Of a stretch of 11,875 nt of DNA, positions 52 to 11,162 are shown piece after piece. Position numbers and translations under genes: made by a program. The notes beneath the pieces are model-generated. The model did no database searches. It had not been told where the DNA came from and was given only the letters and a program-made list of their open reading frames with translations. The number at the start of each line of letters is the position of its first letter. Position 1 is the stretch's first letter. The DNA is from a virus (taxonomy: Duplodnaviria > Heunggongvirae > Uroviricota > Caudoviricetes). The DNA is taken from IMG/VR virus record IMGVR_UViG_2698536366_000007; one strand, given 5' to 3'.

Positions 52-250
52 TCCATCACCGAAAAAAATTGGCTTTTACACCATTGGCGATAAAAGCATT
101 TACCTGTATGACCTACGCCGCATGGATGAAATCATGGAGGCTCTTGATAATCGTTCGTCGATGGATTGGTGTGTTGCTGTTCATGATATGAATGCAGGGT
201 TTGATGAAAAGATTTTGTTCCCCTCATCAGTTGAAAGCACTGCGGGTTAA
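52..250 (+). pseudogene. 3' remnant of a phage gene truncated by the upstream IS600 (about 65 C-terminal codons, stop at 248-250)
   Basis: The open frame runs straight out of the IS600 end, so the ATG at 20 listed in the ORF track lies inside IS sequence; the downstream translation looks protein-like. Family not recognised. Confidence 0.4.
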
Positions 251-260
251 GGAGTAACAC

Positions 261-428
261 ATGACCACTATTACCAAAGAACGTATTGAATTGTTCATTA
301 AAAACCCGCTTGAAAACGGGCTTACCCGTGGTGAACAAATGGAACTGGCACGGATTGCGCTGGCATCGCTGGAAGCAGAGCCGGTTGTGTTCTGGTTTGA
401 AAAATATCAAGAAGGGGCTACGGCATGA
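261..428 (+). CDS. hypothetical small phage protein (55 aa)
   Basis: ATG at 261 preceded by AGGAG at 250-254; stop TGA 426-428 overlaps the next start (ATGA); shares the MTT(I/F)T(K/R)E N-terminus and the IAL-SL-AEP motif with the following ORF. Confidence 0.5.
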
Positions 429-769
429 CGACTTTTACCAGAGAGCAGTTAATAGCTCACGCAGAGGAGACTATTGAAGCACAGAGACTGTGCATACCGG
501 GCACAATCGACCATGACATCATCCGCACATATAAGATGGATATTGCTGTTCTGGAAATCGCACTGGTATCGCTGGCAGCAGAGCCAGCCGGTAAATTGCA
601 TGAATACAAACCAGTGGGATATCAGCGTCTGGTCGATGAGTTAACCATGCTGGTAAAGCAGTTAACCTGGCAACTGAGGAAAGCGAAGCCAGACTGCAAA
701 TTACCGGATAAGGCGATGAGTTATCTGGAGCGGAACGGACTGATAAGCGTGGAGGATATTTTACGATGA
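425..769 (+). CDS. hypothetical phage protein (114 aa), paralogous to the preceding 55-aa ORF
   Basis: ORF track; ATGA overlap with the upstream ORF and with the downstream 27-aa ORF; shared motifs with the 261-428 product. Confidence 0.55.
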
Positions 770-849
770 CCTGGCCTGAAGCATTAACAACGGTAGGAAT
801 TGCGATGGCGGTGGCGCTGGTGGTGTATTCGATTTGCCGCTGGGGATAA
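766..849 (+). CDS. small hydrophobic peptide (27 aa, [27 protein letters not shown]), predicted single transmembrane helix
   Basis: ATG 766 overlaps the upstream stop (ATGA); strong SD GGAGGA at 751-756 with 9-nt spacing; stop TAA 847-849. Below the ORF-track size cutoff. Confidence 0.45.
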
Positions 850-1003
850 AAACGGTTTGCGGGAAAAGGAGAGTTAAGTAGAATTGCAGCGGGTGCTTGA
901 GGCTATCTGTCTCAGGCATGAACACCAAAAGGCAGATAGAGAAAAGCCCCAGTTAACATTACGCGTCCGGCAAGACGCTTAACATTAATCTGAGGCTCAA
1001 TCT

Positions 1004-1216
1004 ATGAACGGCAAATCTAGGTTAGCCTCTTACGTGCCGAAAGGCAAGGAGAAGCAGGCTATGAAGCAGCAAAAGGCGATGTTAATCGCCCTGATCGTCA
1101 TCTGTTTAACCGTCATAGTGACGGCACTGGTAACGAGGAAAGACCTCTGCGAGGTACGAATTCGAACCGGCCAGACGGAGGTCGCTGTCTTCACAGCTTA
1201 CGAACCTGAGGAGTAA
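1004..1216 (+). CDS. hokD: Hok/Gef family type I toxin with in-frame mok-like N-terminal extension; core hok reading frame 1061-1216 (51 aa)
   Basis: Core translation MKQQKAMLIALIVICLTVIVTALVTRKDLCEVRIRTGQTEVAVFTAYEPEE matches, from memory, the HokD/RelF toxin; the leader carries hok-mRNA-like elements (GCTTGAGGC at 896-904; AGCCTCTTAC...GCAAGGAGAAG immediately before the ATG). Confidence 0.8.
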   Translation: MNGKSRLASYVPKGKEKQAMKQQKAMLIALIVICLTVIVTALVTRKDLCEVRIRTGQTEVAVFTAYEPEE

Positions 1217-1286
1217 GAGACCAGGCGGGGGAGAAATCCCTCGCCACCTCTGATGGGTCAGGCATCCTCAATGCACCCACACTTAA

Positions 1287-1311
1287 CCCGCTTCGGCGGG
1301 TTTTTGTTTTT
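1287..1311 (+). terminator. rho-independent terminator of the hok transcript
   Basis: Stem CCCGC / GCGGG with UUCG tetraloop (1287-1300) followed by TTTTTGTTTTT. Confidence 0.65.
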
Positions 1312-2852: not shown

Positions 2853-3233
2853 ATGACCGAGCGCATAGAATTTGTTTTACCTTACCCGCCGACGGTGAAC
2901 ACTTACTGGCGTCGTCGTGGCAGCACATATTTTGTATCAAAAGCCGGGGAGCGTTATCGCCGGGCAGTGGCGCTTATTGTTCGCCAGCAGCGGCTGAAAT
3001 TAAGCCTGTCCGGAAGGTTGGCAATAAAAATTATTGCAGAACCACCGGATAAGCGCCGCCGTGACCTGGACAATATTCTGAAAGCGCCGCTGGATGCGCT
3101 GACGCATGCGGGGTTGCTAATGGACGATGAGCAGTTTGATGAAATCAATATCGTTCGTGGTCAGCCAGTATCTGGTGGACGTCTGGGGGTGAAGATTTAT
3201 CCCATAATGCTTGAAGGGCAGGTCAAAAAATGA
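2853..3233 (+). CDS. rusA: RusA-like Holliday junction resolvase
   Basis: 126 aa with the RRRDLDN acidic motif and overall similarity to E. coli RusA; ATG immediately follows the upstream stop. Confidence 0.8.
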   Translation: MTERIEFVLPYPPTVNTYWRRRGSTYFVSKAGERYRRAVALIVRQQRLKLSLSGRLAIKIIAEPPDKRRRDLDNILKAPLDALTHAGLLMDDEQFDEINIVRGQPVSGGRLGVKIYPIMLEGQVKK

Positions 3234-6012: not shown

Positions 6013-6416
6013 AAATGTCTCACAATTCAGACGGTTGACAGTTGTCTGTTTTGCGGGGAGTTTGTTAAAAGAAACTGGCATGGTGAATCCCCCTGTGCGG
6101 AGGGGCAATCAGCGAGTAGGTATATGGGATAATCGCGGATTCAGGTGCTGGTACTGAATTCACCGGGAGGCACCCGGCATCATGCAATGGCACATAGCGC
6201 CACTCTCCAGCCCTCTCCGGAGGGGCTTTTCTGTGCCGGATACATCACAGTTTCTGGAACCTTAGGTACTACAGTATCAGTCAGGGTGCTATATTTTCAG
6301 ATGTGATGAAAGCCTGTCAGCAGGCAGGGCGTATCGGAAATGACCCAGTAGAGAAAACGTTGACTCAGATACCGGTGCTGAGTTACCGGGAAACCGGCAT
6401 CACATGACCGCTATCC
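6011..6416 (+). repeat. conserved non-coding element X, copy A (core 6011-6227 shared by all three copies; 6228-6416 shared with copy B only)
   Basis: Near-identical to 8281-8685 and, for the core, to 10923-11130; no convincing ORF; contains TTGACA at 6035-6040 and two GC hairpins sharing CGGAGGGG. Confidence 0.7.
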
Positions 6417-7307: not shown

Positions 7308-7329
7308 CCCGCCGCCGAGCGGGTTTTTT
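7308..7329 (+). terminator. second copy of the tR'-like terminator
   Basis: Same CCCGC-cgccga-GCGGG stem plus T-run as at 4134-4155. Confidence 0.65.
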
Positions 7330-7368
7330 ATTGCGGAATTAATTACGGACCGTTATTATTCTGCTCCC

Positions 7369-7444
7369 GGCCCTTTAGCTCAGTGGTGAGAGCGAGCGAC
7401 TCATAATCGCCAGGTCGCTGGTTCAAATCCAGCAAGGGCCACCA
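7369..7444 (+). tRNA. ileZ: tRNA-Ile (CAU), copy B
   Basis: Identical to 5723-5798. Confidence 0.85.
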
Positions 7445-7451
7445 TCACAAA

Positions 7452-7531
7452 CCGCCATTAGCTTATCAGGAAGAGCAGACGACACGATAACAGGGTTGTT
7501 GGTGCGGGGGCGGGTCCCCGATGGCGGTCCA
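7452..7531 (+). pseudogene. degenerate tRNA-Arg-like sequence (probable tRNA pseudogene), copy B
   Basis: Acceptor and D arms match the copy-A tRNA-Arg(UCG), but the anticodon arm is replaced by unrelated sequence and the T-loop lacks TTCRA. Confidence 0.6.
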
Positions 7532-7544
7532 TTATCGGTATTCA

Positions 7545-7621
7545 GCGTTGTTAGCTCAGCCGGACAGAGCAATTGCCTTCTAAGCAATCGGTCACTGGTT
7601 CGAATCCAGTACAGCGCGCCA
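7545..7621 (+). tRNA. argO: tRNA-Arg (UCU), copy B
   Basis: Same as 5896-5972 with one acceptor-stem change (A to G, giving a G-U pair). Confidence 0.8.
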
Positions 7622-8280: not shown

Positions 8281-8685
8281 TAAATACTTCACAATTCAGG
8301 CGGTTGACTGTTGTCTGGTTTGCGGGGAGTTTGTTAAAAGAAACTGGCATGGTGAATCCCCCTGTGCGGAGGGGCAATCAGCGAGTAGGTATATGGGATA
8401 ATCGCGGATTCAGGTGCTGGTACTGAATTCACCGGGAGGCACCCGGCATCATGCAATGGCACATAGCGCCACTCTCCAGCCCTCTCCGGAGGGGCTTTTC
8501 TGTGCCGGATACATCACAGTTTCTGGAACCTTAGGTACTACAGTATCAGTCAGGGTGCTATATTTTCAGATGTGATGAAAGCCTGTCAGCAGGCAGGGCG
8601 TATCGGAAATGACCCAGTAGAGAAAACGTTGACTCAGATACCGGTGCTGAGTTACCGGGAAACCGGCATCACATGACCGCTATCC
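8281..8685 (+). repeat. conserved non-coding element X, copy B
   Basis: Matches 6011-6416 (SNPs in the first 40 bp, identical thereafter up to the IS600 junction). Confidence 0.7.
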
Positions 8686-9885: not shown

Positions 9886-10001
9886 TATTAGCTCCTTCTG
9901 ATGCCATTCTATTTCAGGAAGGAGTGTCCGTTAAACTCAGGCTACCTCAAGGGTGGTTTTTTATTGCGGAATTAATTACGGACCGTTATTATTCTGCTCC
10001 C

Positions 10002-10077
10002 GGCCCTTTAGCTCAGTGGTGAGAGCGAGCGACTCATAATCGCCAGGTCGCTGGTTCAAATCCAGCAAGGGCCACCA
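10002..10077 (+). tRNA. ileZ: tRNA-Ile (CAU), copy C
   Basis: Identical to 7369-7444. Confidence 0.85.
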
Positions 10078-10084
10078 TCACAAA

Positions 10085-10164
10085 CCGCCATTAGCTTATC
10101 AGGAAGAGCAGACGACACGATAACAGGGTTGTTGGTGCGGGGGCGGGTCCCCGATGGCGGTCCA
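10085..10164 (+). pseudogene. degenerate tRNA-Arg-like sequence, copy C
   Basis: Identical to 7452-7531. Confidence 0.6.
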
Positions 10165-10177
10165 TTATCGGTATTCA

Positions 10178-10254
10178 GCGTTGTTAGCTCAGCCGGACAG
10201 AGCAATTGCCTTCTAAGCAATCGGTCACTGGTTCGAATCCAGTACAGCGCGCCA
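10178..10254 (+). tRNA. argO: tRNA-Arg (UCU), copy C
   Basis: Identical to 7545-7621. Confidence 0.8.
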
Positions 10255-10922: not shown

Positions 10923-11130
10923 CACAATTCAGGCGGTTGACTGTTGTCTGGTTTGCGGGGAGTTTGTTAAAAGAAACTGGCATGGTGAATCCCCCTGTGC
11001 GGAGGGGCAATCAGCGAGTAGGTATATGGGATAATCGCGGATTCAGGTGCTGGTACTGAATTCACCGGGAGGCACCCGGCACCATGCAATGGCACATAGC
11101 GCCACTCTCCAGCCCCTCTCCGGAGGGGCT
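10923..11130 (+). repeat. conserved non-coding element X, copy C (core only)
   Basis: Matches the 6011-6227 core with two differences, then diverges into unique AT-rich sequence. Confidence 0.7.
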
Positions 11131-11162
11131 GTTTATATTGATTTTGTCAGATGTGAGTAAAC

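Follow-up and report, generated by a model that had tools for sequence, protein, structure and literature searches.

The DNA analysed here, referred to throughout as the window, is a stretch of 11,875 nucleotides (nt) from a virus of the class Caudoviricetes (IMG/VR record IMGVR_UViG_2698536366_000007). Near its start, three open reading frames (ORFs) follow one another on the same strand: ORF1, ORF2 and an 84-nt frame of 27 codons (the mini-ORF), beyond which lies a hok/sok module. Comparative sequence analysis makes it very likely that the mini-ORF is a real gene, and it probably encodes a translated membrane microprotein coupled to the cistron upstream. The window belongs to a lambdoid prophage of Escherichia coli: a 161-nt probe (positions 740 to 900) was 100% identical to the chromosome of E. 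coli strain 300709, and the genes annotated there parallel the window ORFs. At the strain 300709 locus, cI/cro-like, YdaT-like and replication genes precede, and hokD, a DUF968 gene, rusA and a Q-type antiterminator gene come after. The Prokaryotic Genome Annotation Pipeline (PGAP) lists ORF1 and ORF2 in this strain as hypothetical proteins and names hokD; no gene is called between ORF2 and hokD.

The three ORFs are chained by two ATGA start/stop overlaps, GCATGACG at 423 to 430 and CGATGACC at 764 to 771, exactly as the initial annotation had described them. In homologs of the mini-ORF the overlap is retained in 131 of 133 cases (ATGA in 129, GTGA in 2 more). Codon 2 encodes Thr, Ser, Asn or Ile, yet its first base is always A, and Ser is written AGC or AGT, never TCN; the upstream TGA is thereby preserved. 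The mini-ORF had also been credited with the best Shine-Dalgarno (SD) sequence in the region, GGAGGA with 9-nt spacing, and this holds narrowly. Its duplex energy with the 16S 3' end is -9.3 kcal/mol, against -8.7 for ORF1, -8.5 for hok, -7.1 for ORF2 and -5.6 for mok, and only about 3% of positions in the window reach its value. Nearly all homologs keep a GGAGG-type SD despite unrelated upstream C-termini (ending, for example, in PEPPQEVNQ, ISVEDILR or KNIEQKVNQ). At eight annotated phage loci with a homolog, the upstream stop overlaps the mini-ORF ATG in every case and the upstream gene varies; in E. coli phages the microprotein gene always directly follows a gene of the Ea22/EaA/DUF551 group. 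RNA folds over the junction and the ORF were no stronger than shuffled controls (z from -0.5 to +1.35). In the arrangement we propose, the mini-ORF is the last cistron of an early-operon array of mosaic Ea22/EaA-type genes (here ORF1 and ORF2), its SD is written in the last codons of whichever C-terminal domain comes before, and its translation would proceed by termination-reinitiation coupling at the ATG that overlaps the upstream TGA.

Searches of 50,697 records of cultured phages by blastn and by tblastn matched about 100 records each. Two scans with degenerate patterns, of IMG/VR plus the phage loci, yielded 152 copies that could be evaluated. More than 150 of the loci retrieved contain this same 84-nt frame, a recurrence far beyond chance. 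Conservation of the frame and its SD among related phages and prophages, which the initial annotation had named as a check, was found: 138 of the 152 copies have exactly 27 codons, with ATG or GTG as start and TAA or TGA as stop. When a search was anchored at the 5' end only, variants with altered C-termini still had 27 codons. Sixty-two distinct intact DNA sequences encode 40 peptides. The ratio of nonsynonymous to synonymous polymorphism (pN/pS), an approximate pairwise estimate, is 0.35 in frame versus 1.0 and 2.0 in the other forward frames; over codons 7 to 22, which the search pattern left free, it is 0.45 versus 0.67 and 1.56 in the shifted frames. Gly11 is present in 39 of the 40 distinct peptides (codons GGA, GGG, GGC and GGT) and Arg25 in 38 (codons CGC, CGA, CGG and CGT), and Gly27 is encoded by three codons. 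The other forward frames are closed in 59 to 60 of 60 sequences. A minus-strand ORF at 761 to 928 was considered as coding and rejected; it is closed in 43 of 60 homologs.

Matches to the window are confined to the mini-ORF itself in VT1-Sakai, BP-4795, YYZ-2008, WGPS2, PhiR12, PhiR5, POCJ13 and Av-05; in ArgO145 the match covers 740 to 850 and excludes the hok side, and in 933W and VT2-Sakai it begins at 766 and runs on through hok. The mini-ORF is a discrete mosaic module with varied flanks, bordered by unrelated DNA on one side or on both, and is present in Shiga toxin (Stx) phages (933W, VT1-Sakai and VT2-Sakai), other lambdoid phages, Av-05 and phage-plasmids. Homology breaks exactly at both ends of the 84-nt block, and these ends are its most conserved parts, as they could be if the 84 nt were conserved as a DNA linker promoting recombination between mosaic lambdoid genomes and the open frame were incidental. 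Crossovers inside the block are indicated by an allele with TGG changed to TAG at codon 3: it always stands with the upstream junction GGTACGCCAATGA (upstream protein ending in PEPPKEVRQ) and is joined to three different downstream ORF bodies, which suggests recombination within the mini-ORF. Codon 3 also shows a TGG to TGA variant and W3R variants. A linker does not explain synonymous change at conserved residues (four codons each for Gly11 and Arg25, three for Gly27, TAA or TGA as stop), a pN/pS lower than that of the shifted frames, or the joint preservation of start codon, SD, exact length and stop. Nor does it explain a peptide motif that is kept in relatives with unrelated DNA, whose guanine-plus-cytosine (GC) content is 32 to 56%. 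A recombination-site role may coexist with coding but cannot account for the coding features, and the linker as the whole explanation is very unlikely.

Several points weigh against a translated membrane microprotein gene at this position. The antisense frame that shares wobble positions with the mini-ORF has a pN/pS of 0.34 and is open in 57 of 60 sequences; the conserved block of the window copy shows no candidate start for it, so that its start would have to lie outside the block, in flanks that vary from phage to phage. Values of pN/pS and the fractions of intact copies are approximate because the copies are phylogenetically non-independent and the search patterns fix parts of the sequence, and pN/pS was computed pairwise, not tree-corrected. 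About 9% of the 152 copies are interrupted, which implies that the gene is dispensable in some prophages. Eight copies have the codon-3 stop (TAG or TGA), three have a 1-nt deletion allele in common, one has a stop at codon 26 and one has an insertion; the last is an early VT2-Sakai record, and the RefSeq record of the same phage is ungapped over residues 1 to 26. Another copy is a 23-residue relative with an ATGA overlap, following an Ea22/DUF551 protein. Interruption of the frame between conserved flanks, which the initial annotation had set against its own proposal, thus does occur in this minority, although in our reading the interrupted copies are pseudogenes of an accessory gene and do not refute the proposal. 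In the portions consulted of their supplements, the peptide is absent from a small-gene study of enterohaemorrhagic E. coli Sakai by ribosome profiling (PMC5597208) and from a survey of the Enterobacteriaceae microproteome (PMC11188072). Finally, the membrane partner and the N-out topology proposed below are read from features of the sequence. The coordinates of the features at the locus are given in Table 1.

Table 1. Features around the mini-ORF in the window.
Feature	Positions	Strand	Remarks
ORF1 SD, AAGGAG	249..254	+	6 nt 5' of ATG
ORF1, 55 aa	261..428	+	residues 1-41 a stand-alone Ea22/EaA-type N-terminal module, then a 14-residue tail; PGAP WP_000207997
ORF2, 114 aa	425..769	+	N-terminal helical-hairpin module (residues 1-54), disordered linker, conserved C-terminal module
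Mini-ORF SD, GGAGGA	751..756	+	within the final ORF2 codons (V-E-D); 9 nt before ATG
27-codon gene, predicted single-pass membrane microprotein	766..849	+	ATG overlaps ORF2 TGA (ATGA)
Inferred hok promoter, TTGCGG, 16-nt spacer, TAGAAT	857..884	+	separate from the microprotein gene
hok mRNA leader with antisense sok region	891..1066	+	Rfam RF01794, 112 bits, E=1.7e-25
mok (1004-1216) and hok (1061-1216)	1004..1216	+	Pfam HOK_GEF, E=3e-23; hokD by PGAP in the identical locus

The two genes upstream of the mini-ORF resemble each other at their N-termini (18 of 54 residues identical, BLASTP E=1e-5, in an alignment that spans the N-terminal 40 to 55 residues), and both match PHROGs 3323, 60, 660 and 5117, which are of unknown function. 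For ORF2 the match to phrog_660 has E=8e-43. ORF1 matches phrog_3323 at E=1.3e-19, and phrog_60 and phrog_660 as well; because it covers only positions 1 to 58 of the 90-position phrog_3323 profile, it is probably a truncated family member. The common N-terminus and internal motif reported in the initial annotation are therefore substantiated, but the ancient tandem duplication proposed to explain them is not, since the same N-modules occur recombined onto other C-domains. A protein search with ORF2 returned 238 homologs, and their alignment shows a variable N-module, optional inserts and a near-invariant C-module. The N-module of this family is helical, begins MTxxTKEQL and finishes at a 10-residue linker motif, IALxSLxAEP. 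The C-module (about 45 residues) consists of ELTMLVKQL...KPDCKLPD... and a 12-residue end, and its final codons carry the mini-ORF SD.

Module exchange is seen in the recombinant architectures P0067, P0098, P0100, P0117 and P0126. P0067 (101 residues, one gene) joins the N-module of ORF1 to the C-module of ORF2, and P0098 and P0100 have the ORF2 N-module on other C-domains, one of them DUF551. DUF551 C-domains on homologs of the ORF2 N-module were found in P0100 and P0102, and P0126 (called Eaa in Salmonella) carries the ORF1 N-module on a long protein that ends in an ORF2-type C-module. The linker motif is coded at 354 to 383 in ORF1, where it ends the N-module, and at 557 to 586 in ORF2. With one following base added to the 30-nt motif (354 to 384 versus 557 to 587), the two DNA segments, aligned by hand, are identical at 26 of 31 positions, as would fit a recombination joint. 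In homologs this motif likewise lies where N-modules meet many different C-domains (P0067, P0098, P0100 and P0117). The DNA that codes for it looks like a recombination hotspot for domain shuffling, where recombination would move the N-terminal helical module among C-domains. The likeness of ORF1 and ORF2 thus reflects a shared, exchangeable N-terminal module of a large mosaic family of early proteins of the Ea22/EaA type, and simple tandem duplication does not account for it.

Domain and structure searches gave little further information on these two proteins. Neither ORF1 nor ORF2 matched a Pfam family even at E≤1, the Ead_Ea22 and DUF551 signatures included, and neither matched NCBIfam or PADLOC. 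ORF2 had no match in a PDB sequence search, and Foldseek against PDB gave nothing better than E=1. The AlphaFold2 model of ORF2 is all-helical (predicted local distance difference test score of 74.8), with a hairpin at residues 6 to 51, a disordered segment at 56 to 62 and helices at 63 to 87, 95 to 103 and 109 to 113. ORF1 and ORF2 are Ea22/EaA relatives through module sharing and not signature-positive members of these families.

The mini-ORF is common in E. coli. Among complete genomes of this species, 1634 of 5426 (about 30%) carry it, at 3110 places (up to seven per genome, 163 on plasmids), and nearly all matches cover the full 84 nt. An exact-pattern scan of GTDB species representatives found it only in E. 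coli, Shigella flexneri and two contigs from metagenome-assembled genomes (MAGs). A 1780-bp contig of a Segatella copri MAG holds the 1-nt-deletion allele, and a Victivallaceae MAG contig has a mini-ORF pattern match; both of these non-enterobacterial placements are probably due to mis-binning or contamination. Escherichia phage Av-05 (Vequintavirinae) has an intact microprotein gene (MTWPEAFTTVGVVMAVAFAVYSVCRWG) with an ATGA overlap. The gene is also present in TH18, 18-1-2 and 24-2-1, which together with Av-05 are non-lambdoid large phages of 77 to 134 kb, and several of these records give the upstream gene the annotation EaA protein. A case similar to the two MAG contigs is the record named "Actinobacillus phage vB_Apl-pPE4", which is about 97 to 98% identical to window positions 671 to 1308. 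Two loci that matched the 5' pattern, L142 (61% GC, after an RtcB-like fragment) and L154, were set aside as unrelated or as chance matches.

Hok toxins are the immediate neighbours of the mini-ORF in the window, and the initial annotation had placed the peptide just upstream of hok. The position is correct here, but the link is incidental: hok-type DNA, although the most common single downstream context, follows only 47 of 152 copies (about 31%). The other copies (about 69%) are followed by other DNA in at least 12 contexts, including the xis/int region and a toxin-antitoxin pair. A place for the mini-ORF within the hok/sok module, such as that of a leader or of a regulatory frame acting on the hok promoter or mRNA, is extremely improbable. 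The mini-ORF stop is followed after 8 nt by the inferred hok -35 element and after 42 nt by the leader of hok, and phages of the 933W type match the window as one block from 766 to 1288, as such a role would have it. Besides the varied downstream contexts, hok modules occur without the mini-ORF (PPompW-type matches start only at 849 and mEp460-type matches at 872), the Rfam hok/sok model starts only at 891, and the peptide has no HOK_GEF match. The hok promoter was inferred from sequence and from the leader start; a consensus scan did not list it. The hok/sok module is an independent neighbour of the mini-ORF. For hokW-sokW, toxin-antitoxin behaviour was reported with hokW driven by a heterologous arabinose-inducible promoter (PMC8621323).

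Two other features of the window lie downstream. A GC-rich hairpin with a T-run (AACCCGCTTCGGCGGGTT TTTGTTTTT) at 1285 to 1302, about 70 nt past the hok stop, is likely the 3' end of the hok mRNA. Between 5723 and 11200, downstream of a Q-like antiterminator and a DNA methyltransferase, there are three tandem units of tRNA-Met(CAT), tRNA-Arg(TCT) and the small RNA STnc100. The STnc100 copies (RF02076) lie at 6049 to 6238, 8318 to 8507 and 10951 to 11140, and the first unit also holds tRNA-Arg(TCG). Segments 7322 to 7621 and 9955 to 10254 are 100% identical and lie 2633 nt apart. Only one tRNA set is present, within the stretch viewed, at the E. coli locus matched by the 740 to 900 probe.

Relatives of the peptide extend beyond E. 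coli phages. An exhaustive HMMER search with a four-sequence profile (an alignment of 31 to 45 residues) against 1.84 billion representative proteins gave 61 hits at E≤1e-3. Some of these are variants of the E. coli type, a few are fusions or extensions due to mis-calling, and about 25 are diverged proteins of 30 to 44 residues on phage-like metagenomic contigs, such as MEISWPEAIMWIGIAFAAALAIYSIMRWGD, MNWPEAFATVGVAFAVVLFFYILFKYIERAIK and MINLLLAETISWPEAFAVVGIAFAAALAFWALFKYGD. A word-indexed protein search with a 45-residue extended form returned only three representatives. The family motif is W-P-E-A-F-x-x-V-G...[YW]...[RK]; in a 28-sequence alignment W3, A6 and G11 are invariant and P4 is present in at least 90%, with an aromatic residue near position 21 and a basic one near 25. 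Five diverged relatives were traced to contigs (GC content 32 to 56%), where they are part of closely packed runs of small genes on one strand; three of the five have a 4-nt overlap with the upstream gene, and two of the contigs have PHROG-positive (phage-family) neighbours. One diverged relative (P0186) has a reciprocal tblastn match to E. coli phage copies, and two others (P0210 and P0192) had no tblastn match among the cultured phage records. Ten diverged relatives had no significant Pfam or PHROG match.

Annotation resources have largely passed over this family. The peptide fits no Pfam, PHROG or NCBIfam family, and PGAP leaves it unannotated. Its best matches are below threshold: KdpF TIGR02115 (E=0.12, 12.5 bits, cut-off 26.85), phrog_4612 (E=0.011) and Pfam DUF883_C PF19029 (E=0.029, 14.5 bits, cut-off 27). 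Searches of the literature on the peptide and its WPEAF motif, on hokW, on Ea22/DUF551 and on small membrane proteins of prophages turned up no account of the ORF, and some GenBank submitters annotate the peptide as a hypothetical "prophage protein". Membership in DUF551 was considered and rejected: the peptide is filed in 90%-identity clusters whose DUF551 representatives, of 121 and 185 residues, do not contain it, and this placement is taken to be an artefact of clustering, perhaps caused by fused or partial members that bridge the groups. Partial peptides at NCBI such as GGESMTWPEAF... carry the name "DUF551 domain-containing protein, partial". Such naming and clustering hide the microprotein.

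Fusions of the peptide to upstream proteins occur, and they raise the question of whether it is the C-terminal membrane anchor of the upstream Ea22/DUF551-type protein, either detached or attached only under some conditions, by frameshift or by fusion. In P0047 (143 aa, five contigs) and P0157 a frameshift links the peptide to a C-terminus of the ORF2 type, and in P0178 (206 aa) and P0179 (143 aa) an Ea22-like coiled-coil region is in frame with MSWPDAF.... The constant position of the peptide directly downstream of such genes in E. coli phages and its weak resemblance to the tail-anchor region DUF883_C agree with an anchor, although the DUF883_C score is under the Pfam cut-off. However, nearly all copies stand as separate cistrons, each with an ATG and SD of its own, and distant relatives come after unrelated upstream genes. 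The junctions that were read, GAAUCAAUGACC and UUUACGAUGACC, contain no slippery heptamer (X XXY YYZ), and the shift needed is -1 across a stop codon; the fusions may also be mutant or mis-called genes. An anchor is therefore highly improbable, and the rare fusions are weak hints of a functional link that do not establish a fused norm.

As a free-standing product, the peptide would be a single-pass membrane protein. The initial annotation had described one hydrophobic helix, and hydrophobicity analysis agrees: residues 7 to 24 (mean Kyte-Doolittle value 2.18, summed Hessa free energy of insertion about 0) are predicted to be long enough to span the membrane. Over the same residues, seven 27-residue variants have mean Kyte-Doolittle values of 2.0 to 2.8 and summed free energies of -2.7 to +1.5 kcal/mol; the 23-residue relative is lower in hydrophobicity (1.48, with a free energy of +2.6). 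The predicted layout consists of an N-terminal W-P-E-A-F interface cap, a Gly/Ala-rich core (G11, A13, A15 and A17) and, on the C-terminal side, an aromatic belt of Tyr21 and Trp26 with a basic Arg25. By the positive-inside rule, the peptide would insert into the inner membrane with its N-terminus out and its C-terminus in. Its small-xxx-small face could then pack helix-to-helix with a host or phage membrane protein early in infection or induction. This partner-binding mode of action, derived from the motif, the small-xxx-small face and the charge distribution, is tentative. A broader proposal is decidedly unlikely: that W-P-E-A-F peptides are a widespread, hitherto overlooked family of phage-encoded single-pass effectors that dock on a conserved host inner-membrane machine, such as a protease or transporter complex, and that in E. 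coli lambdoid phages they act as membrane-bound partners, recruiting the soluble Ea22/DUF551-type proteins coupled to them and influencing lysis-lysogeny or superinfection.

An equally real gene could instead encode a membrane-damaging toxin of the "kil" type, which would depolarise or permeabilise the inner membrane. Lambdoid kil functions lie in early operons, where the mini-ORF also sits, and the size and hydrophobicity of the peptide are like those of type I toxins and other toxic small peptides. Selection against a harmful product could lie behind the repeated loss of the frame at codon 3. Against this, 91% of copies are intact even in resident prophages, and no antisense RNA or antitoxin partner is evident. 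Conservation of W-P-E-A-F, G11 and the aromatic-then-basic motif in diverged relatives suggests a specific interaction over bulk damage, and a kil-type action is considered unlikely.

Small phage proteins are a recognised blind spot of annotation, and the mini-ORF is unusually well supported by comparison. It is also unusually common, occurring in the Shiga toxin phages 933W, VT1-Sakai and VT2-Sakai, and the RefSeq annotation of the loci examined omits it. It stands at the end of poorly understood arrays of the Ea22/exo-xis type, which published work ties to the lysis-lysogeny decision and hence to toxin release. If a specific host target is true, the peptide would be a new player in early phage-host interaction; otherwise it still merits entry in annotation pipelines. 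A defined 27-residue peptide with a sharp conserved motif is easily testable.

Ea22, EaA and DUF551 proteins of the lambdoid exo-xis region (PMC7093339; PMC10834534) are the closest known counterparts of the upstream genes. In the passages searched of PMC10834534, Ea22 variants are described as a common N-terminal segment combined with unrelated, interchangeable C-terminal domains. ORF1 and ORF2 have the same architecture of N-terminal segment and swappable C-domain, and they stand in the same kind of gene array. They differ in giving no Pfam Ead_Ea22 or DUF551 match, and the C-module of ORF2 is modelled as a distinct helical domain. The array here also lies after the replication genes and upstream of Q, not between exo and xis. 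Pro-lysogenic activity has been reported for the Ea22 proteins of lambda and an Stx phage only (PMC7093339), and the passages searched of the two papers (PMC7093339; PMC10834534) do not mention a downstream microprotein.

Small hydrophobic proteins of other families offer comparisons for the peptide. Like the Hok/Gef type I toxins, it is small, hydrophobic, predicted to be membrane-directed and borne by prophages; unlike them, it has no HOK_GEF match, it lacks an overlapping frame like mok, and no antisense RNA model covers it. The tail anchors of ElaB/YqjD (DUF883_C glycine zipper) also have a Gly/Ala-rich transmembrane helix at the extreme C-terminus, and the rare fusions are anchor-like, but the score is sub-threshold (14.5 versus 27 bits) and the mini-ORF is a free-standing cistron in almost all copies. 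KdpF, AcrZ and MgtS, small inner-membrane regulators of E. coli, act by binding a larger membrane protein. The mini-ORF peptide resembles them and other phage small proteins (PMC11323111) in its size of 27 residues, single hydrophobic helix, small-xxx-small face and neglect by annotation, and also in its proposed binding to a larger membrane protein. It differs in being phage-borne, coupled to an upstream gene and marked by its own W-P-E-A-F motif, and it is not a KdpF member by sequence (12.5 bits versus a cut-off of 26.85). The family is new, but the kind of molecule is known and no new biological principle is involved.

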